Below, piece by piece: positions 1 through 14,288 of a stretch of 20,795 nucleotides of DNA. This stretch comes from a virus (taxonomy: Duplodnaviria > Heunggongvirae > Uroviricota > Caudoviricetes): IMG/VR virus record IMGVR_UViG_2529292920_000022; one strand, 5' to 3'. The notes under the pieces are model-generated. The model did no database searches. It was not told the origin of the DNA and saw only the letters and a list, made by a program, of their open reading frames with translations. Position 1 is the first letter of the stretch; every line of letters begins with the position of its first letter. A program made the translations under genes and the position numbers.

Positions 1-1260
1 ATGCCAAAACTCACAGATATGCAGATCCGCGCATGGATAAAGGCGGGAGACAGATTTGATGGCAAGGCAGACGGCAACGGCCTTTATATTTGCTACCCCA
101 AAAACTACACAGCCCCGTTCTGGCGATTCCGCTATAAGCTCGCAGGAAAGCAGCGGGCTATGGTTATAGGCTCTTACTCCGAACTGTCACTATCAAAAGC
201 CAGAGAAACAGCAAAAGAGCTGTCAGCCAGAGTTGCTCTTGGCTATGACGTAGCAGCAGAGAAACAGGAACGAAAAGCTGAAGCACTGGCAAAAATGGAG
301 GCTGAGAAAAACGCCATGCGTGTTTCAGATCTGGCCTCCGAATACTTCGAGCGCCAGATACTTCCGAGATGGAAACATCCCGATATCCTTCGCCGGAGAA
401 TTGATAAGGATATTAACCCCTGCATTGGGCATATGAAGGTAGAGGACGTTAAGCCACGCCACATTGACGACATGTTGAAAGGTATCGTTGACCGAGGAGC
501 ACCAACGATAGCAACAGATGTATTACGCTGGACACGCCGTATCTTTGACTACGGGATAAAACGCCACGCTCTGGAGATAAACCCTTGTTCAGCGTTTGAA
601 GTATCTGATGCTGGTGGTAAAGAGGTTTCCCGCGACCGTTGGCTAACTCGCGATGAGCTTATCAGGCTATTCGAGGCTATGCGCACCGCAAAAGGATTCA
701 GCCGCCAGAACGAACTGACATTTAAGCTATTGCTGGCACTATGCGTTCGTAAGATGGAGTTATGCGCCGCACGATGGGAAGAGTTTGATTTAGATGGTGC
801 GGTATGGCATTTGCCGGAAGAACGCAGCAAAAACGGAGACCCTATTGATATACCTCTACCTTCCCCAGCCGTTGAATGGTTGAGAGAGCTACACACCTTT
901 TCATGTAATAGCGCATGGGTGCTTCCAGCCAGGAAGATGCAAAACAGAATGATCCCACATATTCAGGAAAGCACTTTGCCCGTAGCACTGGCTAAGGTTC
1001 GCGCCGAAATGCCGGATGTGCCTAATTTCACGATTCACGACTTCCGACGCACCGCACGTACTCATTTAGCAGCGTTGGGTGTTGATCCTGTCGTGGCGGA
1101 ACGATGCCTCAATCATCGCATTAAGGGCGTAGAGGGGATTTATAACCGCCATCAGTATTTTGATGAGCGTAAAGCAGCACTGGCACAGTGGGCTGATCTG
1201 CTGGTGGCACTGGAAAGCGGAAAAGACTACAACGTAACGCCTCTCAGAAGGGCGAACTAA
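1..1260 (+). CDS. int: P4-family tyrosine integrase (CP4-57 IntA-like)
   Basis: 419-aa ORF. N-terminal region (GNGLYICYPKN...WRFRYKLAGKQRAMVIGSY) resembles the arm-binding domain of P4-type integrases; C-terminal region carries catalytic-type motifs (HDFRRTARTHL, NHRIKGVEGIYNRH). An AlpA gene lies downstream, the usual partner of this integrase class. Confidence 0.9.
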   Translation: MPKLTDMQIRAWIKAGDRFDGKADGNGLYICYPKNYTAPFWRFRYKLAGKQRAMVIGSYSELSLSKARETAKELSARVALGYDVAAEKQERKAEALAKMEAEKNAMRVSDLASEYFERQILPRWKHPDILRRRIDKDINPCIGHMKVEDVKPRHIDDMLKGIVDRGAPTIATDVLRWTRRIFDYGIKRHALEINPCSAFEVSDAGGKEVSRDRWLTRDELIRLFEAMRTAKGFSRQNELTFKLLLALCVRKMELCAARWEEFDLDGAVWHLPEERSKNGDPIDIPLPSPAVEWLRELHTFSCNSAWVLPARKMQNRMIPHIQESTLPVALAKVRAEMPDVPNFTIHDFRRTARTHLAALGVDPVVAERCLNHRIKGVEGIYNRHQYFDERKAALAQWADLLVALESGKDYNVTPLRRAN

Positions 1261-1355
1261 CTGAATAGATTGAGCCTAGCTCGACGGGGCGAAAAGCGGG
1301 AAGCCTTACCGCCTGGCTCAATCACAAAATAAGGCGCAGCGTAAAAGGTGACGCA

Positions 1356-2321
1356 ATGAACGACTCTCATGAAACAACAGTGGTGCATAGAAATTTATGG
1401 CAGGAATCAGGTATTCCACCTTTGGACTACTGCACGATAGAGCGAGCATCAAAATTATTAAATTGTGAAATTGATGATATATGGCATTGGAAAGATAGAC
1501 TACATATAGACTTTTATGTCTATGCTGACTTTCTTGATTTCATTGAATCTGATGCCACCATCCACTTCAAAAAAGATGCTAATTTTATAACTGATTTATT
1601 ACTTATGTACCCAGAAGAAGTAAGGTTTACATTTCCTTTTCTTATTACCAGCGCAAGCAACGAAGTTTATATCCCAGCATCTGAAAGCGGTGCTTATGAG
1701 CTATTTTATGCACATAAACCACTGACAGTTGAAGACAGCGACAATAAAAATGTTTTTGAACAAATTGGCAAAAACTCTTTTATTGTAAGAAAATCAATTG
1801 CATGTGGATTGTTGCGTGTACGCGGTAGAACAACACGACATTATCATTCACAAGAATGTGGAGAACCATATGTGCGACTTGAAGCAACATTTGATTGTGA
1901 TCTATATAAATTCAAAATGCAAAGTTCCCAAATTCACCTGAGTAGCCTGTCAGATAAAAACATTTATATAACAAAGGCTGATTTAGAATACCTTCATGAC
2001 GCAAAGGTTAATGGAAGTTTTGACGCAGCTAAGAGCAAAAAACGATACGAAATGGCGGTAGAACAGGAACTAATACCTGAAATAAAAAATAGCAACCATA
2101 ATGCCGAGAGACATGCTGAAAACAGGGAAAAACTTTTCAAATCTGCAATATATCTTTTGTCAAAGTATCCTGATGAATGCCGTGGCAAAAAGAAAGAAAT
2201 AAGCCCTGAGAAGTGGCGGGATTGCATAGTGGCTCATAAAGACGAAATTCCACCGTTAGCAATCACAAATGAAGATGTGATTTTGAGACACTTACGTGCT
2301 GCCGCCAACGGTAAGGGGTAG
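1356..2321 (+). CDS. Hypothetical protein, AT-rich cargo gene between int and alpA (same position as yfjH in CP4-57)
   Basis: 321-aa ORF with an AAAAGG Shine-Dalgarno upstream. Markedly lower GC than the flanking int and alpA. No motif I recognise. Followed by a strong intrinsic terminator. Confidence 0.6.
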   Translation: MNDSHETTVVHRNLWQESGIPPLDYCTIERASKLLNCEIDDIWHWKDRLHIDFYVYADFLDFIESDATIHFKKDANFITDLLLMYPEEVRFTFPFLITSASNEVYIPASESGAYELFYAHKPLTVEDSDNKNVFEQIGKNSFIVRKSIACGLLRVRGRTTRHYHSQECGEPYVRLEATFDCDLYKFKMQSSQIHLSSLSDKNIYITKADLEYLHDAKVNGSFDAAKSKKRYEMAVEQELIPEIKNSNHNAERHAENREKLFKSAIYLLSKYPDECRGKKKEISPEKWRDCIVAHKDEIPPLAITNEDVILRHLRAAANGKG

Positions 2322-2336
2322 AGTAGCTAACTATTC

Positions 2337-2367
2337 AGGCACAGTATCATTACTGTGCCTTTTTATT
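2337..2367 (+). terminator. Rho-independent terminator after the AT-rich cargo ORF
   Basis: 10-bp perfect stem AGGCACAGTA / TACTGTGCCT with a 4-nt loop, followed by a T-rich run. Confidence 0.6.
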
Positions 2368-2435
2368 GTTCATATATGTACAGATACTTCCTCCCGTAAC
2401 GAAGCAACAACTATCGCTAAGAGGTTACGGGAAGC

Positions 2436-2639
2436 ATGAACACCGACACTATTCCTACAAAAGGCTATATCAGACGCTTCCGCCTGGCTGAATTGCTGGG
2501 CGTTAGTGTATCCACCATCGACCGTAAAGTAAGAAACGGTTCACTACCACGTCCGGTAAAGCTGGGAGAAAAAATAACTGCGTTTGATGCGGTTGAGATT
2601 CACAACTGGCTGGCAGAACGCCGCGGGAAGGTGGCCTGA
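2436..2639 (+). CDS. alpA: AlpA-family transcriptional regulator / excisionase-like protein
   Basis: 67-aa ORF; the segment RRFRLAELLGVSVSTIDRKVRNGSLPRPVKLGEKITAFDAVEIHNWL matches the AlpA / MerR-like HTH pattern. Sits next to a P4-type integrase. The RBS region is flanked by an inverted repeat (CCCGTAAC ... GTTACGGG). Confidence 0.85.
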   Translation: MNTDTIPTKGYIRRFRLAELLGVSVSTIDRKVRNGSLPRPVKLGEKITAFDAVEIHNWLAERRGKVA

Positions 2640-2649
2640 TGGAAAAGAA

Positions 2650-3770
2650 AAACCGCCCATTACAGGCGGCTAATTCAGATATTCGCGTATCTGATGTTAC
2701 GCCCCTGACAAAATCCCTTCAAGCACCTGTATGGGTCCACCACATATTGCAATTTTTATTCTCTTTTAAAATATATTCCACGGGCGTCATTAGTGCGAGC
2801 GCCTTGTGGGGTCTTTTGCTGTTATACAGCACCAGATATTCCGCCAGCTTCTGGTTAAATAGCGCCAGATCTTCAAAGAGTAAAATCTCATTAAATTCAA
2901 TAAACTGCTCTCTTAACGTCCGGTTAAAACGTTCACAGATAGCGTTCATTTTTGGCGTGTAGGGATAGGTCCAGAGGTGTTTGATAGCGGCTTCCTGCAG
3001 CGTTTTGTCGAAGTTTCCCAGGAACTCTTTTCCGTTATCTGTGATTATCTGGCTGATACCGACCGGGAACAACCGGGCTGCGCGGCTGAAGAAGTGATTG
3101 ACGATATCACTGTTGAGTGACGGCACAGCCAGCGCCAGCGCGTAATTGCTGCATTCGTCGATCATGGTGATGACATAGCGACGCAGTTCGCCCATTCTGA
3201 GCTCAATGGCGTCCATCCCAATGAGCTCACCTGTCTTTACCGGGCGGTAGTGCTTTGGCCTGCGGGGTTTGGCAGACCGCTTTTTGACAAGCAGTGCCTT
3301 CCCCCGCGATCCCAGACGCACAGGTATCATCCGCATTTTATCATGTGCGGCAGCGATCATTCTGCCGATGGTGGAAACACTCGGACAGGCCAGATAGCGC
3401 TGTTCGCACCAGGGCTTCAGGCGAACAAAAATCTGCTCTTTACCGAGGTTCGGCAGCTCTGTCCTGAGGCGTCGAATCTCTTTCAGCACATCGGGATGCC
3501 AGTGTTTTTTTCGTCGCACCAGAGGTGCCTTACTGTGCGGGATTAGCCCCTCAGGTCCTTCCTTGTTCAGTAACTGACGCCACCAGTAAAGCGTGCGGCA
3601 GGACACGCCAAAGGCTTCAGAAGCTGCAGAAATACCGTGTTTATCCCAGAAGTGCAGAGCCTTCATTCTCATTGTTGCTATATCAGCCATCACTGAAAGC
3701 CTCAACGCATAATCGGCCGTTTGGTAGTACTTAGGATAGCCAACCATCAGATGCTGCATTTGCATAGTGC
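2650..3770 (-). mobile_element. IS481-family-like insertion sequence (single-ORF DDE transposase); boundaries approximate
   Basis: A single minus-strand ORF with an N-terminal HTH and an rve-type DDE core fills the gap between alpA and the next plus-strand gene. Imperfect inverted motifs near both ends (CATCAGAT-containing) are candidate terminal repeats. Exact ends and target-site duplication not resolved. Confidence 0.5.
2719..3765 (-). CDS. DDE transposase (rve / integrase core), IS481-family-like
   Basis: 348-aa ORF. N-terminal HTH (MADIATMRMKALHFWDKHGISAASEAFGVSCRTLYWWRQ) and candidate D, D, E residues (GMDAIEL, ITDNGKEF, NAICERFNRTL). The true start is probably the internal Met near 3690. 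Confidence 0.75.
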   Translation of the reverse strand: MQMQHLMVGYPKYYQTADYALRLSVMADIATMRMKALHFWDKHGISAASEAFGVSCRTLYWWRQLLNKEGPEGLIPHSKAPLVRRKKHWHPDVLKEIRRLRTELPNLGKEQIFVRLKPWCEQRYLACPSVSTIGRMIAAAHDKMRMIPVRLGSRGKALLVKKRSAKPRRPKHYRPVKTGELIGMDAIELRMGELRRYVITMIDECSNYALALAVPSLNSDIVNHFFSRAARLFPVGISQIITDNGKEFLGNFDKTLQEAAIKHLWTYPYTPKMNAICERFNRTLREQFIEFNEILLFEDLALFNQKLAEYLVLYNSKRPHKALALMTPVEYILKENKNCNMWWTHTGA

Positions 3771-3865
3771 AATCTCCCCTTACTTATCCGGAGGCAATTG
3801 CAATATCTCTGTGAACTTACACAGCACCAAAGCGCACACCGAAAAAGCATCGTGCCAGAGTCTAT

Positions 3866-4171
3866 ATGCTGCGTACTGGTATAGAGGGATGGACAGAAAA
3901 TGACATTCTTCGCTACTGCCGTCTGTCTTCTGGTCGTAACTATGCAACAGAGTTAGAACGCCAGCTTGGAATCACTCTGGAGCGTATCGACGAAAAGAAT
4001 CCTGATGGTATCGGAACACACCTTCGCTACCGTTTCTCCTGCCGTGGTGATGTTCTGAAAGTGATCACTCATGTTAACCATCTTGCGAACATAAATGATC
4101 ACAACGGACTTTCTCAGCAGGAAATTGCCGACATTCTGAAACTCTACCCGAACGCGTTTAACGCCGCCTAA
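3866..4171 (+). CDS. Hypothetical protein (101 aa); possibly a remnant of a gene disrupted by the IS
   Basis: Open frame immediately right of the IS with no convincing RBS at the annotated ATG. Confidence 0.35.
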   Translation: MLRTGIEGWTENDILRYCRLSSGRNYATELERQLGITLERIDEKNPDGIGTHLRYRFSCRGDVLKVITHVNHLANINDHNGLSQQEIADILKLYPNAFNAA

Positions 4172-4183
4172 CGGAGACTGAAA

Positions 4184-5017
4184 ATGAACATCGAAAAAAG
4201 CAGATTAATTTCTGAGGCCGCCCCTCATCTGAACGCCTCTCTGGGCACAATTAACGGTAATGAATTTGCCGCAATTGTCCCGGTTATTCCTGGTCATATC
4301 GGTGGGCGTGAAACCAATATTGTTAGCGCAAAAGCGTTACACAAAGCGTTGGGCGTGGGAAAAGACTTCTCTACATGGATCACTGATCGCATCTCTGAAT
4401 ATGACTTCACCATTGGGCACGATTACTCAGTCCATAAAACAATTTCCCCAAATTTGGGGAAAAGCCCGAATGGCGCGGCTTACAGCAAGATAAAGCACTC
4501 TGGCAGACCCGGCAAAGACTATCTGTTAAGTGTCGGAATGGCGAAAGAACTGGCAATGATCGAACGCAATGATCAGGGTCGCGCTATCCGCCGTTATTTC
4601 ATCCAGTGCGAGGAAGAATTACAGCGTACCGTGCCTGAAATCGCCGCCCGCTATCGTCGCCAGCTAAAAGCCCGTATTAGTGCCGCAAACAACTTTAAGC
4701 CAATGTGCGATGCGCTGAATATGGCCCGTGCCGAGATGGGGAAAATGACGCAGCAACACCACTACACAAACGAGAGCAATATGATTTCTCGTATCGTTCT
4801 TGGTGGGCTAACTGCTAAGCAGTGGGCGCGGATAAATGGCTATTCTGGCGAACCTCGCGACCATATGAACGCAGAACAGCTTGAGCACCTCTCATATCTC
4901 GAAAGCACCAATATCACGTTAATTGATATGGGCATGGAATATGAGCAGCGCAAAGGAGAACTCACCCGCCTGTCGCAACGCTGGCTCGCCAAGCGTCTGG
5001 AGGCGCTCAATGTCTAA
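4184..5017 (+). CDS. AntA/AntB-domain antirepressor-like protein
   Basis: 277-aa ORF. The segment KDYLLSVGMAKELAMIERNDQGRAIRRYFIQCEE and the preceding region match the AntA antirepressor domain pattern. Confidence 0.65.
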   Translation: MNIEKSRLISEAAPHLNASLGTINGNEFAAIVPVIPGHIGGRETNIVSAKALHKALGVGKDFSTWITDRISEYDFTIGHDYSVHKTISPNLGKSPNGAAYSKIKHSGRPGKDYLLSVGMAKELAMIERNDQGRAIRRYFIQCEEELQRTVPEIAARYRRQLKARISAANNFKPMCDALNMARAEMGKMTQQHHYTNESNMISRIVLGGLTAKQWARINGYSGEPRDHMNAEQLEHLSYLESTNITLIDMGMEYEQRKGELTRLSQRWLAKRLEALNV

Positions 5018-5189
5018 GCCAACAGGAACACCACAACCACAAAAACGCTACAAAGATGCCCACGGAGCACTCGTTACTGTCGAAAGCGTGTCTCACAACC
5101 GAGTGACGTTTTATCGCGACGGGTATCAATCGCCATGCGTACAACCGCTGGCGCGTTTCATGAAGGAGTTCGCGGAGGTTAACCAATGA
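5010..5189 (+). CDS. Small protein, DUF4222-like
   Basis: 59-aa ORF (MSKPTGTPQPQKRYKDAHGALVTVESVSHNRVTFYRDGYQSPCVQPLARFMKEFAEVNQ). GGAGG RBS 8 nt upstream; start overlaps the end of the upstream gene by 8 nt. Confidence 0.5.
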   Translation: MSKPTGTPQPQKRYKDAHGALVTVESVSHNRVTFYRDGYQSPCVQPLARFMKEFAEVNQ

Positions 5190-5619
5190 TACCCGTCCAG
5201 AAGAAGACATTTTCACTGGCTGGTATGTCGCCAAAATCCAGCAATATGACGGCAAAGTCAGGCATTAATACAGCAGATACAAGCAAAGTTTATCATTTGC
5301 TGGTGGTCGGAACGGATGCCTTAACCATACCAGAAATCTCGGGCGATGATATTAGCATTGAGAAGGTCAGCGGCTGCGCCAGAAAATTTCTGGTCGTAGA
5401 TGATGTCTTCCGCTCGCGTAGTGACTCCACAAAAACCTTCATCCGCGCGCGTGACGTTAACGAAATGAGCGCGATGTACTGTGCATCTGGTGCTTCCAAT
5501 AGCGAGTTTTCGGAGTCCATAAAAAAGAGCTTGCCGTTATGCGGCAACACGGTTTATGGTTATAAGGCACCTCATAAAACGGGTGCCGGGATTGGCGTCC
5601 TGGTAAATCGAATGGCGAC

Positions 5620-5847
5620 ATATGACGCGCCGAGCGTCTTTTTTTATGTCGTAGGTCTGACTCACCCATTTTTTGGGCGTTGGTGTATAATCCAGCGCCT
5701 TTGTCAATCAATGGTGGCTCAGGCAGGGGCTTCTTCGGAAGCGCCGGTATCCATTCGAGCCGGTTACGCCAACCCTGTCTGGGCTACCACCAGCGAAATT
5801 GGCGTTTCCGGTGGTAGCGTTACATGCTATCGAATGGAGGCTGCCAC
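5620..5847 (+). promoter_or_regulatory. Candidate terminator, promoter and structured leader upstream of the icd-like gene
   Basis: Short GC hairpin GACGC-GCCGA-GCGTC followed by a T7-8 run (about 5624-5645); extended -10 TGTATAAT (about 5684-5691); leader with a GCUUC-UUCG-GAAGC tetraloop hairpin and a 9-bp inverted repeat GCTACCACC / GGTGGTAGC; GGAGG RBS before the ATG at 5848. Confidence 0.3.
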
Positions 5848-6042
5848 ATGCTGGCTACTACCCCTACCCAAAAACCGCAATTTATCTGGATTATCGCCGC
5901 AGTTCGCCGCGATTGCCCGACAATTACCGCCAGAATTCATCATATTGCTGCCGAGTCTGAACGCGATGCTCGCCGTTCTCTGGTGCGCGATCACGTCTGC
6001 TTTTTTGCTGGTCGTATCCGCATGGAGGTGGCACATGATTAA
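5848..6042 (+). CDS. Icd-like (cell-division-inhibitor-like) small protein
   Basis: 64-aa ORF MLATTPTQKPQFIWIIAAVRRDCPTITARIHHIAAESERDARRSLVRDHVCFFAGRIRMEVAHD. The FxGR...V...H C-terminal pattern and size match Icd-like proteins of P1/P4-like elements. Good RBS. Confidence 0.55.
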   Translation: MLATTPTQKPQFIWIIAAVRRDCPTITARIHHIAAESERDARRSLVRDHVCFFAGRIRMEVAHD

Positions 6043-6253
6043 AACCTACGATGTGCATATGGATCCCCTCGAACGCACAAGCCAGATCATCACACTGACA
6101 GAAGTGATTAACGACATTCTGGTGAGCAACTCTCCCTCACGAGACGAAAGACTGAAGGCGTTACTCGCGATATTGGATCTCGCCGTTCGTGACGTTCATT
6201 TCCTGCTGGAAGGTGGCGAAATGCCAGTAAAAACGGGGGCAACCAATGAATAA
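6035..6253 (+). CDS. Hypothetical small protein (72 aa)
   Basis: ATG overlaps the icd-like stop (ATGATTAA); GGAGG RBS. It is the real 3' portion of the 355-aa ORF in the track, which I take to be a chimera. Confidence 0.5.
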   Translation: MIKTYDVHMDPLERTSQIITLTEVINDILVSNSPSRDERLKALLAILDLAVRDVHFLLEGGEMPVKTGATNE

Positions 6254-6440
6254 CTCAATTAATACCCCTCGCCTTACGTCCGCACTTCAATTAATCGAGC
6301 AAGCAGCGGCTGTCCTGGTTGCTGTCAGTCTTTCGGCTGAAGAAATGGACGCTACTGATGTCGTGGATGCGATTAAAGCGTGCTCATCTTTGGTTAACGA
6401 TGCCCGTGCAGAGCTGGTAATTCTTGGGGGTGAAAAATGA
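6246..6440 (+). CDS. Hypothetical small protein (64 aa)
   Basis: Start overlaps the upstream stop (ATGAATAA); part of a co-directional chain of coupled ORFs. Confidence 0.5.
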   Translation: MNNSINTPRLTSALQLIEQAAAVLVAVSLSAEEMDATDVVDAIKACSSLVNDARAELVILGGEK

Positions 6441-6700
6441 ATATCAACTTAATTTATCGTCATCCGTGTGAGCTGGAAATTGAATCATTGCTGAGCCGTG
6501 AAGAACCATATCCAGACACATTCACTCTTGCAGATCGCACGACTGAACGGCTTACCAGAGCGCGCACAGGTCTGGTTCATGTGATGAATGAGATTCTTCC
6601 ATCGGTGGGAGGGGAACAGGCGACAGTAATCACTAGCTGGCTACAAAAAGTTACCTCTCTGATAGATATCAGTTTAATCGATGCGGAGAGTGCGAAATGA
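6437..6700 (+). CDS. Hypothetical protein (87 aa)
   Basis: ATGA start/stop overlap with the upstream ORF. Confidence 0.5.
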   Translation: MNINLIYRHPCELEIESLLSREEPYPDTFTLADRTTERLTRARTGLVHVMNEILPSVGGEQATVITSWLQKVTSLIDISLIDAESAK

Positions 6701-6918
6701 CCAACATCCAGCTCATTGAAGCGCAATGTCGCATCGAACAGGTTCAGACTGTTTTAGGGTTCTGGCTTGAAGGGGCCAGCCCCAGCAACAGAGACAAGTT
6801 AATGATTGGCGCGGTTATGTCACTGCTCAATGGCGTACCAGAAGCTATTCAGGAAGCAGACGAATTGTTGGGCAAATATGAGTTACAGAATCATTCAGGC
6901 GAGGCGAAACATGAATAA
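6697..6918 (+). CDS. Hypothetical protein (73 aa)
   Basis: ATGA start/stop overlap with the upstream ORF. Confidence 0.5.
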   Translation: MTNIQLIEAQCRIEQVQTVLGFWLEGASPSNRDKLMIGAVMSLLNGVPEAIQEADELLGKYELQNHSGEAKHE

Positions 6919-7513
6919 TTTCTTAACTTTCCAGGCAGAAGCAACGCCTGACGGCGTAAACATCATGCACCGCAGCAACGATGGCATGACAGAACGCGTT
7001 GAGACCGTCTCATATATTGATGCCGTAAATCGTCTGGATGCCGAGGATTATGACGATAAACCAGATGAAGGTATGTCAATACATCTCGCTATTGCCGATG
7101 GCGGCAACCAGGGATATTTCGATTACACATCACAGCATAACGTCATTATGTGGAGATGGTTGATCGCAACAGTATTCATGCTGGAAATGAGAGAGGAAAA
7201 CGGCACTGTCAGCATCATTGATGATACTGGCAATCCTTCCGAAGTGGCTGTTTATTCCAACGGCATCGTCGCCATGCCGCTGTATCCAGTAGCAGAGCGC
7301 CTCGCTATGGCAAACAACATTGAGGGCGCGATGATAGAACGTTTTGGCATCGAGTCTGGCACAGAACGCTCCATCATTTTCTACAGAGCCATGATGGATG
7401 TGGAACAAGGAGCACTGACTCCATTTGGTCGTGAAACGCTTGCTGAACTTCACAACAGCTTTATAGCTGAACTGAATGAAAACGGCATGCCATCGGAACC
7501 AGTGACGCACTGA
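6911..7513 (+). CDS. Hypothetical protein (200 aa)
   Basis: Internal Met of track ORF 6806-7513; the start MNNFLTFQ overlaps the upstream stop (ATGAATAA). Confidence 0.5.
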   Translation: MNNFLTFQAEATPDGVNIMHRSNDGMTERVETVSYIDAVNRLDAEDYDDKPDEGMSIHLAIADGGNQGYFDYTSQHNVIMWRWLIATVFMLEMREENGTVSIIDDTGNPSEVAVYSNGIVAMPLYPVAERLAMANNIEGAMIERFGIESGTERSIIFYRAMMDVEQGALTPFGRETLAELHNSFIAELNENGMPSEPVTH

Positions 7514-7523
7514 GGATGGAACC

Positions 7524-7865
7524 ATGATTACTAAAAATTTCCGACTGAATGCGCTGGCAAATAAGTATGCGTCAGCACTGTATAACCACATTACCTCCAC
7601 CAGCGGCGGGGACTATTTCATGATTGATGCGGACGGAGAGGCCGTACGTGTGGAAATCGTCAATGGAGTAAAAGGCGTTCGCAGCCTGATCGATAGTTAC
7701 GCACTGGCAGCCATGAAAGTGTTCTACCCGCAGTGGGAAACCGTGGGGATCGAGCTTCTTGATCGTTGCGTCACTAAGGACAGATTGACTGACGTCGGGC
7801 GTGAGATATGGCAAAGCATGGTTAATGACATGGGCGCAACTGTAGCGGGAGGTTCTCATGCGTGA
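7524..7865 (+). CDS. Hypothetical protein (113 aa)
   Basis: Co-directional ORF in the pre-primase operon, with a short intergenic gap carrying an RBS-like GGAGGATGG. Confidence 0.5.
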   Translation: MITKNFRLNALANKYASALYNHITSTSGGDYFMIDADGEAVRVEIVNGVKGVRSLIDSYALAAMKVFYPQWETVGIELLDRCVTKDRLTDVGREIWQSMVNDMGATVAGGSHA

Positions 7866-8229
7866 AAATGCAGAAATGGCGCTTAGCTCCGCAATCGGAG
7901 AGCAGGTGGCAAAGATTGCTGGTGCTGTGTGGATTCATAACCTTCATTCTACTGGTGAAGAGAAAATGGCAATTCAGACGCCAGAGGGACGCACTATTAC
8001 TACATCTCTGAAGCCGTCAGATGTTTGTGATCTGATTTGCGCATTCATGTACCCAGCAATGAGGACTGTCCACGGCGATAAGTGGAAACTTGCGACAACC
8101 GCTGAATTTGATATGTGGCTAAACAATGATGGCATGCTGACTGATTACGGAATAACCAAGTGGCAGATGCTGGTTAGCCATATCGCAAACGCTATAGACC
8201 ACGTGGGGTACGGTGATGCGAAACATTGA
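7858..8229 (+). CDS. Hypothetical protein (123 aa)
   Basis: Start overlaps the upstream ORF end; its stop overlaps the primase start. Confidence 0.5.
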   Translation: MRENAEMALSSAIGEQVAKIAGAVWIHNLHSTGEEKMAIQTPEGRTITTSLKPSDVCDLICAFMYPAMRTVHGDKWKLATTAEFDMWLNNDGMLTDYGITKWQMLVSHIANAIDHVGYGDAKH

Positions 8230-10972
8230 TCTTATCCGTCAGGTTATCAGTGCGTCTGAAAACAACTGGCCTCATGTGCTGGGCTGCCTGAACATAAATG
8301 TCCCTGACTCTCCGCGCCGTCATGCTCCCTGCCCTGCATGTGGGGGCAAAGATCGATTCCGGTTCGATGACAACGGGCGCGGTAGCTTCATCTGTAATCA
8401 GTGCGGCGCTGGTGATGGGCTGGATTTAATTAAACGCGTAAATAACTGCGACACAACAGAGGCGGCGCTGCTTGCCGCTGATGTTCTGGGTATTGATTAC
8501 CGGACAACGGAAACACCAGAAGCCACCAGCCAGAAACGGGAACAACTGGAAACCGAGCGCCAGCAACGCGAACAGGAGCGCCTGAAAAGGGCGGAGAAGG
8601 ACGAACAACAAAGACGGGATACGTTTTCCCGTCAGTTTGATGACATGCGCAGAAAGGCTGTAAACGGCAAATCTGATTATCTGGTTGCGAAAGGGGTAGG
8701 TGATTTTACATTCCCCGTGTTGCCCGATGGATCTCTGTTGCTGGCGCTGGTGGATAAATCCGGCGCAGTCACAGCAGCACAGACTATTACCTCACATGGT
8801 GAAAAAAGACTCCTGACAGGTTCAGCAAAGCGGGGGGCATATCACGCCATAAACGCACCAGAAACAACACAGAGCATCTTAATCGCAGAAGGGCTGGCAA
8901 CGGCATTATCTGCCCATTTAATTCGTCCAGAGGCGCTGACAGTGGCGGCGATTGATGCCGGGAACCTGTTATATGTCGCCCAGGTACTGCGGGATAAATT
9001 TCCTTCAGCACAAATCATCATTGCTGCGGATAACGACCACAGCGAAGGAAGACAAAACACGGGGAGAATAGCAGCAGAAAAAGCAGCTTTATCTGTTTCT
9101 GGATGGGTGGCATTACCCCCGACAGGTCACAAAGCAGACTGGAATGATTACCACCAAAAACACGGCATTAAATGCGCCACAGAAGCGTTCAATAAGTCAA
9201 TGTACCAACCACAGGGTAATGGCGTGAAACAGGAGCCACAGACCATTGAGGGAAGCGATTTTAAGGTTATGGATACCGACCCACTGAAACCAAGAATAGA
9301 AAGCCGCGAGGATGGTATTTATTGGGTATCTCCGAGAGCTGACAGCCAGAGTGGAGAAATCATCAATAACGAAAGCTGGTTATGTTCTCCGTTAAGCGTT
9401 ATCGGTACTGGCAGAGACGATAAAGACCAGTATCTCATTCTTCGCTGGCTGTCGTTTGGTTCTGAAACGCCGACAACCGCTGCCATTCCACTGGCTGATA
9501 TTGGTGAACGTGAAGGATGGCGCACACTTAAAGCTGGTGGGGTAAATGTCACGACCAAAAGCAGCCTCAGAGCAATACTGGCAGACTGGCTACAACGCAG
9601 TGGCTCTCGTGAATTGTGGCGTGTTGCTCATGCCACTGGCTGGCAATGCGGAGCGTACATCATGCCTGATGGGGAAATCATCGGAACACCTGAAAATCCT
9701 GTGCTGTTCAGCGGGAGAAGCTCAGCCGCAGCCGGATATACCGTCTCAGGGAGCGCGCAAAGCTGGCGTGATAACGTGGCGCGTCTGGCCTTTGGTAACT
9801 ATTCAATGATGACCGGGATCGGCGCAGCACTGGCAGCACCATTGATTGGGCTGGTGGGCGCTGACGGGTTCGGCATTCATTTCTATGAGCAGTCGAGCGC
9901 AGGTAAGACCACCACGGCAAACGTGGCGAGCAGCTTATACGGCAACCCTGATTTACTGCGGCTGACGTGGTACGGAACCGCGCTGGGGCTGGCAAATGAG
10001 GCCGCCGCCCACAATGACGGACTAATGCCGCTTGATGAAGTTGGTCAGGGCGCTGATCCTGTCAGCGTTTCACAGTCTGCCTATGCGTTATTTAACGGTG
10101 TAGGGAAACTGCAAGGCGCTAAAGATGGTGGAAACCGGGATCTAAAACGCTGGCGTACAGTGGCAATCAGCACCGGAGAAATGGATTTAGAAACATTTAT
10201 CGCTACTTCCGGGCGAAAAACCAAAGCCGGGCAACTGGTGCGACTGCTGAATATTCCGTTGAGTAAAGCAGTACGCTTTCACGATTACCAGAACGGAAAA
10301 CAGCACGCAGACGCACTGAAAGACGCTTACCAGCATCACCATGGCGCAGCCGGGCGTGAGTGGATTAAATGGCTGGCAGACCACCAGCAACAGGCTATTA
10401 AAACTGTTCGTGATTGCGAAAGCAGATGGAGAAGCCTGATCCCACCCGATTATGGTGAGCAGGTTCACCGTGTAGCCGCGCGATTTGCCATTCTGGAGGC
10501 CGCATTGTTGTTAGGCGAGGTTGTAACAGGCTGGGATGCTCAGACATGCCGTGATGCGATACAGCACAGCTATAACGCATGGTTGCGCGAGTTCGGCACA
10601 GGTAACAAAGAGCATCAGCAGATTATTGAACAAACGGAGGCATTTCTTAATGCCTATGGGCTTAGCCGTTTTGCACCATTTCCATACAGCCCGGCAGATT
10701 TGCCCATCAAAGATTTAGCCGGATACCGTCAGCGTGGAGAACATGACGAAAGCCCAATGATTTTCTACACATTCCCGGCCACATTTGAAAAGGAGATCGC
10801 ATGTGGTTTCAACGCAAAACAGTTTGCTGAAGTGTTGAAAAAAGCCGGGATGCTAACCCCACCAAACAGCGGTCGTGGATACCAAAGAAAATCACCACGT
10901 ATTCAGGGACGACAAATAAACGTTTATGTACTCAATTACCAGCCAGGAGATTATAACTCATCTGAAGAATGA
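8213..10972 (+). CDS. Primase-helicase (P4 alpha-like: zinc-binding primase region, TOPRIM, C-terminal helicase domain)
   Basis: 919-aa ORF. N-terminal Cys cluster (CPACGGKDRF...CNQCG); TOPRIM-like acidic motifs (IAEGLATALS..., IIIAADNDHSEGRQNTG); Walker A-like GIHFYEQSSAGKTT and Walker B-like LMPLDEVG. The ATG at 8216 is the likely start (8213 is GTG). Confidence 0.9.
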   Translation: MMRNIDLIRQVISASENNWPHVLGCLNINVPDSPRRHAPCPACGGKDRFRFDDNGRGSFICNQCGAGDGLDLIKRVNNCDTTEAALLAADVLGIDYRTTETPEATSQKREQLETERQQREQERLKRAEKDEQQRRDTFSRQFDDMRRKAVNGKSDYLVAKGVGDFTFPVLPDGSLLLALVDKSGAVTAAQTITSHGEKRLLTGSAKRGAYHAINAPETTQSILIAEGLATALSAHLIRPEALTVAAIDAGNLLYVAQVLRDKFPSAQIIIAADNDHSEGRQNTGRIAAEKAALSVSGWVALPPTGHKADWNDYHQKHGIKCATEAFNKSMYQPQGNGVKQEPQTIEGSDFKVMDTDPLKPRIESREDGIYWVSPRADSQSGEIINNESWLCSPLSVIGTGRDDKDQYLILRWLSFGSETPTTAAIPLADIGEREGWRTLKAGGVNVTTKSSLRAILADWLQRSGSRELWRVAHATGWQCGAYIMPDGEIIGTPENPVLFSGRSSAAAGYTVSGSAQSWRDNVARLAFGNYSMMTGIGAALAAPLIGLVGADGFGIHFYEQSSAGKTTTANVASSLYGNPDLLRLTWYGTALGLANEAAAHNDGLMPLDEVGQGADPVSVSQSAYALFNGVGKLQGAKDGGNRDLKRWRTVAISTGEMDLETFIATSGRKTKAGQLVRLLNIPLSKAVRFHDYQNGKQHADALKDAYQHHHGAAGREWIKWLADHQQQAIKTVRDCESRWRSLIPPDYGEQVHRVAARFAILEAALLLGEVVTGWDAQTCRDAIQHSYNAWLREFGTGNKEHQQIIEQTEAFLNAYGLSRFAPFPYSPADLPIKDLAGYRQRGEHDESPMIFYTFPATFEKEIACGFNAKQFAEVLKKAGMLTPPNSGRGYQRKSPRIQGRQINVYVLNYQPGDYNSSEE

Positions 10973-10997
10973 GCTTCTTCATGTGCGTAGAAAAGGT

Positions 10998-11108
10998 GTT
11001 GGTTCAGTTGGTTCAGTTGGTTCAATTTGTAAAGAGTATTGTTTTATAAGGATTTTATTCTTTTTATTGAACCAACACTGAACCAACAACACGGTATTTT
11101 GAACCAAC
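10998..11108. repeat. Iteron array, putative replication origin (left copy of an inverted pair)
   Basis: Three tandem GTTGGTTCA 9-mers (about 10998-11024), a 44-bp AT-rich spacer, then three TGAACCAAC 9-mers (the reverse complement) at about 11069, 11079 and 11100. Lies immediately 3' of the primase gene. Confidence 0.6.
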
Positions 11109-11428
11109 ACAATGTGACTGAATTGATGCGCACAACACCTGGCTGGCATCAGAGAGTGTTTTACGAGACTTTCGTAAAATCCTGTGTACAAGGGCGTGAC
11201 GTTTTTGAAAGTGAGCACTACGAAATTTTCGTAGTTCAAAAAACAGCCTCTGAGAAGTTGTTATGCCTGTTCAGCAAACCATCCGCATAGCTGATCGCGA
11301 ATCAAATTACCAATGGAGCCAGAAGCAAGGGCAGAACTGAAAAGCGCCTGCCGTGAAGAGTAATGCGATACCATAAATATAGTTTTTAGAGTCCATAAAA
11401 AACCTGTCAAAACCTGACACACAGAACG

Positions 11429-11462
11429 ATGCCACCAGCTACTGAGCGGTGGCATTTTTTTG
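11429..11462 (+). terminator. Rho-independent terminator
   Basis: 8-bp stem ATGCCACC / GGTGGCAT with an 11-nt loop, followed by 8 or more T. Confidence 0.6.
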
Positions 11463-11556
11463 TGCTATTTGTTTCATATTTTGCAATTACGATGATGAAT
11501 ATTGCGATTTGTGAAACCATAATAACTGTTGTTTTATACAGTTCTAAGGGGGCGTT

Positions 11557-11718
11557 ATGGCTATTTCAGTAAAGCCGGTATTGATAAGTGAGAAGCAAAT
11601 GGAAGCGATAAAGAAAATTCAGGAAGAGCAGCGTAAAAAATCAGGAATTGGAGTAGCGCCAACTCTGCATGAAATTGCACGAGGGTTAATAGATAAGGCG
11701 CTGGCAGGCTGTATGTGA
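11557..11718 (+). CDS. Small hypothetical protein (53 aa), possible regulator
   Basis: ORF MAISVKPVLISEKQMEAIKKIQEEQRKKSGIGVAPTLHEIARGLIDKALAGCM with AAGGGGG RBS. Below the ORF-track length cutoff. First gene after the terminator and promoter-like AT-rich region. Confidence 0.4.
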   Translation: MAISVKPVLISEKQMEAIKKIQEEQRKKSGIGVAPTLHEIARGLIDKALAGCM

Positions 11719-11734
11719 AAATGGATGGCATCGC

Positions 11735-12196
11735 ATGGAACTAAAATTTATTGATAACCCTGTGCGATTACAGGCCTTTCTTAACGAGCCAGGCAATACC
11801 GAAAATATTGTTGAGCCGGGGCACACGTACTACATCAAGCCTGATGCGGTATATCTCGGCATCTACGAAGGATTAGTGCTGGCTGGCGTTCATGAAGTGC
11901 GTAACTTCTGGCATAGCGTTGTTGAATGCCATGCGGTGTACGACCCCGGATTCCGTGGTGAATATGCACTGCAAGGGCATCGATTATTCTGCAAATGGCT
12001 TCTCGAAAACTCACCATTCCTTAACAGCATCACCATGGTTCCTGACACCACCAAATACGGACGGGCAATTATCCGTTTGCTTGGCGCTACCCGTGTTGGT
12101 CACCTTGATGATGCTTATATCAGATGTGGTAAACCCGTCGGCGTAACGCTTTATCAGTTAACTCGGCAACAATATAAGGAATTCAGCGAATGTTAA
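11735..12196 (+). CDS. Phage virion-assembly-associated protein, P22 gp14-like by position (tentative)
   Basis: 153-aa ORF translationally coupled (ATGTTAA overlap) to the following three genes. Assigned by position in a gp14-gp7-gp20-gp16-like array; the sequence itself is not diagnostic to me. Confidence 0.4.
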   Translation: MELKFIDNPVRLQAFLNEPGNTENIVEPGHTYYIKPDAVYLGIYEGLVLAGVHEVRNFWHSVVECHAVYDPGFRGEYALQGHRLFCKWLLENSPFLNSITMVPDTTKYGRAIIRLLGATRVGHLDDAYIRCGKPVGVTLYQLTRQQYKEFSEC

Positions 12197-12867
12197 TTAC
12201 CCATATAGCTCATAAACATCTCAATCGTGCCGTATACGAAAAAGGCGGTGATGGTGGTGCCTCTAAAGCTCAGGCGAAGGCCCAGCAGCAGGCAATTGAT
12301 TTGCAGCGCGAGCAGTGGAATACGGTGATGAATAATCTCAAGCCGTATGCAGAAGTCGGATTGCCTGCTTTACAACAACTGCAAGGACTGATGACTCTGG
12401 AAGGGCAGAATAAAGCCGCGAATGATTTCTTTGGTTCTGGTTTATATAAAACACAGGCAGATCAGGCCCGTTATCAGAACCTTGTCTCAGCAGAAGCTAC
12501 CGGGGGGCTTGGCTCAACAGCTACCAGTAACCAGTTATCTTCCATTGCGCCCATGCTTTATAACAATTGGCTCAGTGGGCAAATGCAAAATTATGGAAAC
12601 CTGCTAAATGTCGGGATGAATGCGGCATCAGGGCAGGCAACGGCAGGGCAAAACTACGCCAATAATACCGGACAACTCTTGCAGGGGCTTGGCGCTATTC
12701 GTGCAGGTCAGGCGCAGCAGCCATCCAGTCTTGCGCGTGGTATTGGTGGGGCAGCATCAGGCGCTTTAGCGGGTGCGCAACTTGGTTCCGTTGTTCCTGG
12801 AATAGGAACTGCGGCCGGCGCTATTGGTGGTGGGCTTATTGGTCTTGTTGGGGGGCTTGGATTCTAA
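12190..12867 (+). CDS. Ejection (internal virion) protein, P22 gp7-like
   Basis: 225 aa (P22 gp7 is about 229 aa as I recall). Gln/Ala/Gly-rich with a Gly-rich hydrophobic C-terminus (GIGTAAGAIGGGLIGLVGGLGF). TAATG coupling to the next gene. Confidence 0.55.
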   Translation: MLITHIAHKHLNRAVYEKGGDGGASKAQAKAQQQAIDLQREQWNTVMNNLKPYAEVGLPALQQLQGLMTLEGQNKAANDFFGSGLYKTQADQARYQNLVSAEATGGLGSTATSNQLSSIAPMLYNNWLSGQMQNYGNLLNVGMNAASGQATAGQNYANNTGQLLQGLGAIRAGQAQQPSSLARGIGGAASGALAGAQLGSVVPGIGTAAGAIGGGLIGLVGGLGF

Positions 12868-14288
12868 TGGCGACATGGCAACTTGGCGGGCTGCCTAGCA
12901 TGGCACCGCAAAATGATAATGCTCCTCGTTCTTCCGTTCCTCAGCCTGTGCAGTATCAGCAGCAGCCAAACGTAGGTTTAATGGCGCTACAGGGGCTAAG
13001 AGGCGTTGCTGAGATTAATCAGCAGGCACGTCAACAACAGCGTAAATCAGAGTTTCAGAAAGCATATGCCGGGGCTTTTGAGTCTGGAGACAGAAACAAA
13101 ATGCGCAGTCTTATTTCTGAGTATCCAGAAGAATTTGAAAGCGTTCAGAAAGGGATGGGCTTTATTGATGACGACCAGAGAAATTCTATTGGTCATCTTG
13201 CGACTAGTGCTCAAATCGCATCTTCGCTCGGAACTGGGGCATTTGGAAAATTCATAGCAGATAACGAAGATGAAATGCGTCGCTTGGGAATTTCTCCTGA
13301 GTCTGTTGCCGAAATGCATGTTAATGATCCACAGGGATTCCAGCGGCTTGCTGGTAGTATGGCACTGTTTTCTCTCGGTCATGAGAAGTATTTCGATATC
13401 AAAGATCAAATGGAAGGTCGGGATATTGAGCGAGGCAGGCTGGCAGAGACAATCCGCAGCAATCAGGCTGGCGAAGCACTTCAGGCGAGAGGGCAGGATA
13501 TTAGCCGAGCAAATGCGTTAACGTCAGCATATGCACCAACAGCAGCAATGCAGAATTACAATCAGTACGCTCAAATGTTAAAGGCGGATCCAGAGGGGGC
13601 GGCGGCATTTGCGGCAGCGGCTGGAATTAATACAAACGCCAAAAAATTAATGAGTGTTAGAGAAAACGATGATGGCACTGTCACAAAATACTACACAGAC
13701 GGAAGTGAAGAGCAGGGAAAACTAAACCAGCCAATATCTGGAGATGGGTTTCGTCCAATAGCTTTGCCAACAGCCCAAAAGATCATGGAAAAGTCGCCAG
13801 AAGGGGCTAAAAAAGCTGCTGGATTTGCATACAGGGTTAGGGATGCTCTTGATTCAATAGATACACTGAAAGACCAGCTTAGCCCACAGCGAGTGGCGAT
13901 CATTAATAATGCTTTGGGTAATGGGACGCTGGCTAACTTAACGCTCAGCCCAACAGAGCAGCAATACGTTGTTAATGCTAATGACGCAATAATGGCAATA
14001 CTCCGTCAGGAAACAGGGGCAGCTATCGTACCTGCTGAAATGTCAAAATATTATCAAATGTATTTCCCTCAGCCTGGCGACTCCACAAAAACCATTGATA
14101 CCAAGCGCCGGAAGATGGAAAACCAGTTCAATTCGCTGAAAGCTGCTTCTGGTCGAGCTTATGATGCTTTGCGGGTTATTTCAGCAGTTGACAGAGGAAC
14201 GTCTTCTTCGTCGCAGACATTGCCGCAATCTGAGCAGGTATCACAGCCAGCAGCCAGCAGTAACTTTTCTTCACTATGGGGTGATTAA
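12867..14288 (+). CDS. Ejection protein, P22 gp20-like
   Basis: 473 aa (P22 gp20 is about 471 aa as I recall). Low-complexity Q/A-rich N-terminus. TAATG coupling on both sides. Confidence 0.55.
   Translation: MATWQLGGLPSMAPQNDNAPRSSVPQPVQYQQQPNVGLMALQGLRGVAEINQQARQQQRKSEFQKAYAGAFESGDRNKMRSLISEYPEEFESVQKGMGFIDDDQRNSIGHLATSAQIASSLGTGAFGKFIADNEDEMRRLGISPESVAEMHVNDPQGFQRLAGSMALFSLGHEKYFDIKDQMEGRDIERGRLAETIRSNQAGEALQARGQDISRANALTSAYAPTAAMQNYNQYAQMLKADPEGAAAFAAAAGINTNAKKLMSVRENDDGTVTKYYTDGSEEQGKLNQPISGDGFRPIALPTAQKIMEKSPEGAKKAAGFAYRVRDALDSIDTLKDQLSPQRVAIINNALGNGTLANLTLSPTEQQYVVNANDAIMAILRQETGAAIVPAEMSKYYQMYFPQPGDSTKTIDTKRRKMENQFNSLKAASGRAYDALRVISAVDRGTSSSSQTLPQSEQVSQPAASSNFSSLWGD

Follow-up and report, generated by a model that had tools for sequence, protein, structure and literature searches.

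The closest described relatives of the locus considered here are the immunity region of the satellite phage P4, the immI locus of phages P1 and P7, and the isrK-orf45-anrP locus of Gifsy-1. According to PMC10111431, which summarises Forti et al. 1999, the P4 eta gene holds a constitutive internal promoter, the seqA element and CI; Kil is a truncated form of Eta, eta is coupled to an alpA homologue, and translation of eta prevents termination. The same source states that the internal transcript is quickly terminated through interactions involving CI and seqA, and that its processing yields the immunity RNA CI. It has already been noted that the C4 and isrK models of Rfam match Gram-negative phage-inducible chromosomal islands (PICIs) (PMC10111431). 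In Gifsy-1, IsrK is a structural homologue of P4 SeqA, and orf45 is translated, its nucleotide sequence being conserved and its amino-acid sequence variable (PMC4825925). We analysed a stretch of 20,795 nucleotides from a virus of the Caudoviricetes (IMG/VR record IMGVR_UViG_2529292920_000022; this whole stretch is called the window) and found that its positions 5186-6253 are the P4-type immunity region of a P4-like or PICI-like integrated element. The RNA immunity locus is genuine and well supported, and it coexists with an eta-like open reading frame (ORF) of 355 codons that runs through it. We hold with good confidence that the whole is best explained as a P4-type RNA immunity locus combined with an eta-like ORF under selection for translation.

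RNA elements of the immunity locus

All Rfam families were scanned over the window at their curated cut-offs. Three matches were above threshold (C4, isrK and int-alpA), and a second, permissive scan restricted to positions 5000-6300 returned C4 and isrK again, together with one weak extra match. The C4 antisense RNA (RF01695) is matched over its full length (model positions 1-87 of 87) at 5707-5794 on the plus strand, as are all features of the locus, with 79.5 bits against a cut-off of 45 (E = 2e-14). The isrK RNA (RF01394) is matched over the complete model (positions 1-77 of 77) at 5567-5644, with 67.1 bits against a cut-off of 50 (E = 1e-12). For comparison, 100 loci were gathered by means of their Icd-like protein, a selection that is blind to the upstream ORF; 20 come from species-representative Enterobacteriaceae genomes and 80 from IMG/VR, and phage P4 (L003) and two E. 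coli records were added. The leader regions of the collected loci align well, and the alignment used for covariation holds 78 sequences, 69 of them distinct. The structured regulatory RNA of the P1/P7 c4 or P4 CI type that the initial annotation had suspected directly before the icd-like gene, and for which it had pointed to the C4-type covariance models, is borne out by these two full-length matches and by the covariation described below.

Within the C4 (P4 CI-type) RNA, an outer stem (5712-5728 with 5773-5789) encloses hairpin 1, GCUUC-UUCG-GAAGC (5729-5742), a hairpin at 5743-5764 that carries loop a' (5750-5758), and b' (5766-5772), which is single-stranded in C4; a CCA that is nearly invariant in the relatives (5790-5792) follows the outer stem. 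The minimum-energy fold is the Rfam structure (-47.2 kcal/mol, z = -5.8), and the structures of the locus are far above chance expectation. Downstream, target a2 (5830-5838) is complementary to a' at nine of nine positions and overlaps the Shine-Dalgarno sequence GGAGG (5836-5840) of the icd-like gene, whose ATG is at 5848. Site b2 (5799-5805) is presented in the loop of a hairpin at 5783-5818, formed by the perfect 9-nt inverted repeat 5783-5791/5810-5818. As the 5' arm of this hairpin doubles as the 3' arm of the C4 outer stem, the two structures are mutually exclusive on one molecule. The elements that the initial annotation had placed just upstream of the icd-like ribosome-binding site can now be named: its UUCG-tetraloop hairpin is C4 hairpin 1, and its 9-bp inverted repeat is in fact two perfect repeats, the a'/a2 pair (5750-5758/5830-5838) and the b2 hairpin. 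Processing of C4, with a 5' end made by RNase P, and its role as the immunity factor are inferred from P4 and P1/P7, the tRNA-like stem and the CCA being visible here.

The isrK (P4 seqA-type) RNA extends over 5567-5645, as delimited by the Rfam match, a terminator scan and covariation. It consists of hairpin 1 (5567-5586), hairpin 2 (5587-5602), the loop of which exposes site b1 (5592-5598), the single-stranded site a1 (5608-5615), and an intrinsic terminator with a stem at 5624-5638 and a run of seven Ts at 5639-5645, which is the hairpin and T-run already seen in the initial annotation. The Rfam c4-a1b1 model matches weakly over isrK (5554-5606; 17.9 bits against a cut-off of 46.7). A promoter-like element lies directly upstream, at 5531-5560, with a -35 sequence TTGCCG (5531-5536), an 18-nt spacer and a -10 sequence TATGGT (5555-5560), preceded by a run of As (5521-5526). 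The block AAAAAG-GCTTGCC-N17/18-TATGG (5521-5560) is kept in nearly all relatives, and it is at this block that similarity among otherwise different loci starts. In P4 its counterpart is TTGCCT-18-TATAGT, at an equal distance from the P4 isrK match. We take the 5531-5560 block as the equivalent of the P4 promoter PLE and as a candidate promoter, from which the RNA would be expected to start near position 5567.

In the relatives, nine different distances separate isrK from the C4 stem (103, 106, 115, 130, 133, 136, 144, 145 and 190 nt). In the window, which belongs to the 145-nt class, this spacer holds a hairpin at 5675-5700 (stem 5676-5683/5692-5699; fold energy of the spacer, -17.9 kcal/mol), with the loop UGUAUAAU, and an invariant run of six Us (5669-5674) ahead of it. 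When the 145-nt class is considered alone, six of the nine pairs are compensatory in the alignment fold and the UAUAAU of the loop is mostly conserved; on the full alignment of 78 sequences, in which the indel classes are misaligned at this place, pairing is 48%. The U run and the hairpin are found only in the 145-nt class and are missing in the 103-136-nt classes. The loop contains a perfect TATAAT hexamer (5686-5691), which the initial annotation had read as an extended -10. Were this hexamer the C4 promoter, C4 would be an independent transcription unit rather than a product processed from isrK read-through, and two points would agree with such a reading: the hexamer is positioned 20 nt upstream of the C4 match, and most loci of the 145-nt class keep TATAAT or differ from it by one base. 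We nevertheless judge it unlikely. The hexamer is not an extended -10, because it is preceded by GTG rather than TGn and has no -35; the promoter scan is silent at this site; the hexamer is located in the loop of a hairpin whose stem covaries; several relatives have GTCATA, AGCATT or CGTTAC instead; and four spacer classes that lack the entire hairpin and the hexamer still have C4. The conserved promoter-like element at 5531-5560 lies further upstream and, in Gifsy-1, the RNA located 3' of IsrK is lost upon deletion of the isrK promoter (PMC4825925).

The icd-like gene (5848-6042, 64 aa; NCBIfam NF033153 phage_ICD_like, 71.4 bits) is predicted, by analogy with the known systems, to be the first gene controlled by the RNA. 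On the minus strand of P4, isrK (8692-8615), c4-a1b1 (8705-8653) and C4 (8507-8420, the CI RNA region) are followed by an icd-like ORF of 65 aa, identified here as kil, whose product is 46% identical to the icd-like protein of the window. P4 and the window agree in how the elements are ordered and spaced, and AlpA, a primase and a P4-like integrase are present in both. They do not agree in the sequences of the loops and targets, which would confer a different immunity specificity. P4 also differs in that (i) the spacer between terminator and C4 is 107 nt long and unrelated to the 62-nt spacer of the window, (ii) kil is nested in frame in eta, whereas the eta-like ORF of the window is +1 relative to the icd-like gene and runs into the next gene, (iii) three genes of the window (a 143-aa ORF, AntA and DUF4222) are additional between alpA and the eta-like ORF, and (iv) the gene that follows the icd-like gene in the window is not P4 epsilon.

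The immI locus of P1/P7 shares with the window the C4 Rfam family, the pairing of two C4 sequences before icd with one site on the ribosome-binding site, a duplicate upstream pair of sites, and an icd-like gene as the first regulated gene. There, the antirepressor gene ant overlaps or follows icd, whereas the AntA gene of the window is upstream (4184-5017); moreover, the upstream site pair of the window is weak on the c4-a1b1 model and good on isrK. We know of no long ORF across the locus in P1. The Gifsy-1 locus (IsrK small RNA, STnc1160) resembles that of the window in having an isrK-family RNA with a leaky terminator, a complementary conserved RNA segment downstream, an ORF over this segment in which the nucleotides are conserved and the amino acids are not, and translational coupling to the next gene. 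The Gifsy-1 ORF, however, has 45 codons, begins after isrK and ends at the start of the antirepressor gene, whereas the window ORF is 355 codons long, begins 381 nt before isrK and overlaps the icd-like gene.

Covariation and probable exchange of specificity

Among the 69 distinct sequences, 93.1% of the alignment cells are paired in the structure described above, compared to 79.2% in column shuffles, and pairing falls to 35-48% when the partners are slid along the alignment. Changes on both sides are present in 44 of the 68 pairs, and none of 500 shuffles reached the observed values; the compensatory changes that the initial annotation had proposed to look for in the stems do exist. In C4, the outer stem is paired in 99.8% of the cells (both-side changes in 10 of 17 pairs) and the UUCG hairpin 1 in 99.4% (5 of 5 pairs). 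The helix presenting b2 is paired in 99.6% of the cells, with compensatory changes in 4 of 8 pairs, and the isrK helices reach 96-99%, again with compensatory changes.

The pairings between C4 and its sites behave in the same manner. The a' loop is paired with a2 in 94.5% of the cells (both-side changes in 7 of 9 pairs, with up to five pair types per position) and b' with b2 in 99.2% (6 of 7 pairs). For the upstream sites, located in isrK, the values are 97.3% for a1 with a' (7 of 8 pairs) and 97.9% for b1 with b' (6 of 7 pairs), so that double changes are found in 13 of these 15 pairs. The a2 site is usually a perfect complement of a', while the a1 copy often shows a G-U pair or a mismatch (GTTGTCGG vs GTTATCGG, for example); in the window, the a'-a1 duplex has an energy of -11.3 kcal/mol and the a'-a2 duplex of -13.5 kcal/mol. 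Thirty combinations of a' and b' were found, built from 26 a-types and 10 b-types, and the summed duplex energy is -24.0 kcal/mol for cognate partners, against -10.8 +/- 4.0 kcal/mol for non-cognate ones. Such covariation of the loops with both pairs of sites is what characterises an antisense regulator whose specificity can be exchanged (heteroimmunity).

How specificities are exchanged is suggested by the comparison of the window with its E. coli relatives (L005, L030, L105 and L106). Segment 5522-5847 shows 95 differences in 324 nt (29%), whereas its flanks differ by 0.5-9% only (1-7 changes in either of two segments further downstream; 10-32 in the N-terminal part of the eta-like ORF). Given this contrast, the segment looks like an exchanged immunity cassette, and recombination appears to swap immunity specificities cassette by cassette.

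An open frame kept across the RNA locus

The eta-like ('ash family') ORF occupies 5186-6253 (355 aa, 1,068 bp). It passes through the RNA locus and over the icd-like gene, relative to which it is +1, and its last part shares the frame of the 72-aa gene that follows. Pfam PF10554 (Phage_ASH) matches residues 124-232, which correspond to nucleotides 5555-5881, i.e., to the RNA locus, with 105.2 bits against a cut-off of 26. The corresponding stretch of P4 ORF199 (Eta) is matched by the same family with 82.4 bits; P4 epsilon is not matched by it and belongs to PF25738. No family in Pfam, NCBIfam or PHROGs matches the N-terminal 123 residues of the window ORF. Its start codon overlaps the TGA of the DUF4222 gene (ATGA, 5186-5189), with a GGAGG 9 nt upstream, as the initial annotation had recognised when it described an ATG coupled to this gene with a good ribosome-binding site; the long ORF of P4 likewise starts in an ATGA on the upstream stop.

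The initial annotation had further dismissed the 355-aa ORF as implausible, had seen no confident gene in the interval, and had considered that the 5' part may be a decayed gene. Comparison of the relatives does not support any of these three points. First, in 76 of 78 loci no stop interrupts the ash frame between isrK and the icd ATG, whereas the two other frames contain 3.1 and 3.9 stops on average; when the sequence of the window is shuffled, the frame is open in only 2.5% of the trials. Recounted on distinct sequences, it is open in 63 of 66, and one of the three 'closed' cases is P4, owing to an alignment-gap offset. The two closed loci are L082 (IMGVR_UViG_3300045988_146558), whose T-run lacks one base (a homopolymer error of sequencing, or else a true frameshift), and L027, where unrelated sequence replaces the isrK part, 28 nt from the start of the contig. 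Second, the nine spacings between isrK and the C4 stem are all 1 modulo 3, except in the one locus with the shortened T-run, so that indels preserve the frame. Third, the start of the ORF overlaps or abuts the preceding stop codon (ATGA, ATGnnTAA or TAATG) in 74 of 77 loci although the upstream genes differ, and it is always upstream of the internal promoter; the 5' part is intact. Fourth, two arrangements exist downstream: 31 loci share with P4 an ORF in frame with icd, and 45 loci share with the window an ORF in the +1 frame, the ORF of this second class nearly always crossing the entire icd gene into the next gene. Stops are lacking from the icd +1 frame in all 42 distinct sequences of the +1 class, but in only 6 of the 31 of the in-frame class (Fisher's exact test, 3e-14, with relatedness of the sequences not corrected for). 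The initial annotation had named an intact conserved protein-coding gene over 5186-5840 as a refutation of its proposal; an intact conserved ORF is present there, but it coexists with the RNA and does not count against it.

The amino-acid sequence behaves differently. Over 5522-5847, the ratio of nonsynonymous to synonymous substitution rates (dN/dS) between the window and its E. coli relatives is 1.09, and the 95 differences are split 35/31/29 between the three codon positions. In the N-terminal part (5186-5521), the 10-32 differences in 336 nt are distributed as 14/5/11 in one example, with dN/dS values of 0.5-0.67. The commonest other N-terminal family has many indels, a codon-position variability of 21/20/23 and a median dN/dS of 0.77, and overall the N-terminal parts vary in length from 13 to more than 300 aa. 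Since the frame, the coupling and the absence of stops are kept whereas the amino acids are nearly neutral, translation itself, rather than the protein, seems to be selected. From these comparisons, selection seems to preserve the open frame and the coupling at both ends and not the amino-acid sequence; the amino-acid conservation within the Phage_ASH domain can be explained by the RNA constraints.

Two further observations concern short sequences in this ORF. Near the start of eta-like ORFs with otherwise unrelated N-termini, the motif (V/L)Q-K/N-K-x-F-x-L-A-G-L/M is found (5195-5230 in the window); its version in P4 Eta is LQKLPFSGL (P4 L003, 8767-8710). This motif could be a peptide signal or a DNA or RNA element. 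At the 5' edge of C4, none of the 78 loci deviates from ATGGT (5711-5715), the ATG of which is codon 176 of the ash frame. By analogy with Gifsy-1 (PMC4825925), this ATG may correspond to the first AUG of orf45 and permit internal initiation on read-through transcripts.

The more general proposal is that the ash/eta ORFs of P4-like satellites and PICIs are translation-only: ribosomes would carry upstream transcription past the RNA immunity barrier, and the peptide would be nearly free to drift. We regard the chances of this generalisation as evenly balanced. In its favour, the commoner arrangement (45 of 76 loci, including the window) is without kil in frame; the ORF passes over icd/kil in the +1 frame, from which stops have been purged in 42 of 42 sequences, and is fused to the gene that follows.

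Could the ORF instead encode a functional protein whose sequence matters, a 'Bro network' DNA-binding regulator or a 'transcriptional repressor' as the PHROG entries and the old cI annotations of P4 would have it, the RNAs being secondary? Protein models do exist (in addition to PF10554, phrog_6928, a 'transcriptional repressor', scores 99 bits), the ORF is conserved and coupled, and the short N-terminal motif is common with P4 Eta. These points are outweighed by dN/dS values of 0.5-1.1 and a flat variability across codon positions, and by N-termini riddled with indels. The C-terminal part is Kil in 31 loci but another frame and another gene in 45, and RNA pairing explains the stretch covered by the family models column by column. 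Forti et al. are reported to have shown in 1995 that the P4 immunity factor is the CI RNA and not the product of the cI ORF. We find this protein-centred explanation quite improbable.

Last, the opposite explanation, in which only the RNAs are real, the ORF arises by chance or from annotation and Phage_ASH is a translated conserved RNA locus, draws on the exact coincidence of the Pfam and PHROG matches with the isrK-C4-target stretch, on amino acids that change there with a dN/dS of about 1 and equally at the three codon positions, and on the overlap of the ORF with two genes that have their own ribosome-binding sites, but it is very improbable in view of the open frame, of the frame-preserving spacers, of an icd +1 frame purged of stops only where the ORF uses it, of the coupled start, of the report that P4 eta is translated and functional (PMC10111431), and of the detection by Western blot of Gifsy-1 orf45 over the equivalent segment (PMC4825925). 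On the frame, indel and stop-codon tests, we reject the view that Phage_ASH does no more than reflect a translated RNA.

Genomic setting, proposed mechanism and meaning

The element of the window is organised as integrase, int-alpA RNA, AlpA, AntA, DUF4222, immunity locus, small coupled genes and primase. The P4-like integrase gene is at 1-1260, at the start of the window, AlpA at 2436-2639, the AntA-domain gene at 4184-5017, and the DUF4222 gene, directly upstream of the 355-aa ORF, at 5010-5189. The int-alpA RNA (RF02996) is matched at 1269-1335 on the plus strand (60.6 bits against a cut-off of 35.8; model positions 1-71 of 71), between the end of the integrase gene (stop at 1260) and the beginning of the ORF that follows it (1356). 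Downstream of the icd-like gene, the 72-aa gene (6035-6253) overlaps its end by 8 nt and is in the same frame as the eta-like ORF; Pfam and PHROG searches gave no family match for it, and no Ant or AntA domain. A series of ORFs connects icd-like with the primase (5848-6042, 6035-6253, 6246-6440, 6437-6700, 6697-6918, ~6911-7513, 7524-7865, 7858-8229 and 8213-10972), the last one encoding Zn-ribbon, Toprim and DUF927 domains. As these ORFs mostly overlap by 4 or 8 nt, a block of translation at icd could silence all of them.

Positions 1-13027 of the window are an island found in E. coli O111:H8 (NZ_CP077574; 99.75-100% identical), except for one insertion sequence in the window (2728-3815; 1,088 bp, with an 11-bp target duplication). 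This insertion carries a minus-strand, IS481-like transposase gene with rve and helix-turn-helix domains, and it splits the 143-aa ORF between alpA and antA. Beyond 13027, the window and NZ_CP077574 part ways, and late genes at 11735-16393 are named DUF2824, phage DNA-ejection protein and lytic-transglycosylase-type in the annotation of L001. Of 5,426 complete genomes of E. coli, 1,290 contain DNA similar to 5000-6260. The described E. coli PICI EcCIMP1, for which Kapi1 is the helper phage, carries a primase together with an antirepressor and an Ash family protein (PMC11773190).

For the P4-type locus with a translated eta-like frame, which is the explanation that we favour, the following mechanism can be proposed. 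By analogy with the known systems, transcripts starting at the internal promoter would be untranslated, and many of them would end at the isrK terminator, yielding a short decoy RNA. Transcripts reading through would be processed to stable C4, the tRNA-like stem with CCA being an RNase P substrate in P1 and P4. C4 would then pair with b2 and a2 and block ribosome entry at the icd-like gene, leaving the RNA exposed to premature termination; such termination would keep the coupled downstream genes silent, including the primase gene. On the nascent RNA, C4 bound to b1 and a1 would help termination, as in P4, and free IsrK would titrate the C4-like segment, as in Gifsy-1. The eta-like ORF, on the other hand, would be translatable only from transcripts starting upstream, in the alpA-antA-DUF4222 operon to which it is coupled by the ATGA. 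As they moved across the leader, ribosomes would open up the terminator and the target structures while protecting the RNA from Rho, and transcription from the upstream promoter would thus be insensitive to immunity. The sequence comparison suggests that passage of ribosomes through the immunity leader is the conserved feature, which extends a result obtained with the single phage P4.

Several points weigh against this explanation. For the start of transcription, the efficiency of termination, the processing of the RNA and the dependence on Rho, the explanation leans on homologous systems. The internal promoter fits the consensus at 8 of 12 positions only and, for this reason, was not listed by a simple promoter scan. 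The eta-like frame of the window differs from the icd frame, unlike that of P4, which means that its product would differ from P4 Eta and that roles requiring Kil as the C-terminus are not transferable. As the insertion sequence interrupts the upstream operon, this copy may have lost the bypass route. The open-frame counts were obtained on related sequences and for that reason overstate the number of independent events, and dN/dS over the RNA-overlapping segment is confounded by RNA constraints and by cassette exchange. Finally, the core of the N-terminal motif, Q-K-x-F-x-L-A-G-L/M, is common to the window ORF and to P4 Eta and hints at a constraint at the peptide or DNA level.

Relative to earlier descriptions, only the comparative case for a translation-only ORF and for the out-of-frame variant crossing icd is new. 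Current annotation gives another picture of such loci. In the RefSeq/PGAP records L001, L105 and L106, 5186-6253 is annotated as 'ash family protein' only and the icd-like and 72-aa genes are omitted; in L002, where the ash ORF is truncated, both of these genes are annotated. In all four records the two RNAs are unannotated. PHROGs 6928, 3960, 821 and 995, described as 'transcriptional repressor/regulator', match the translated isrK-C4-target stretch. A survey of P4-like elements used PF10554 as a marker of epsilon (PMC8628076), which is at odds with the match of this family to P4 Eta and not to epsilon.

Taken as an RNA immunity cassette, the locus puts the regulation of many Enterobacteriaceae satellites in the right light. 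If the ash/eta ORFs are indeed translation-only, PF10554 and several of the 'transcriptional repressor' families in PHROGs would not be protein families but echoes of a conserved RNA, and the a' and b' loops would together make up a combinatorial immunity code of two parts, in which no fewer than 26 x 10 types are seen here.

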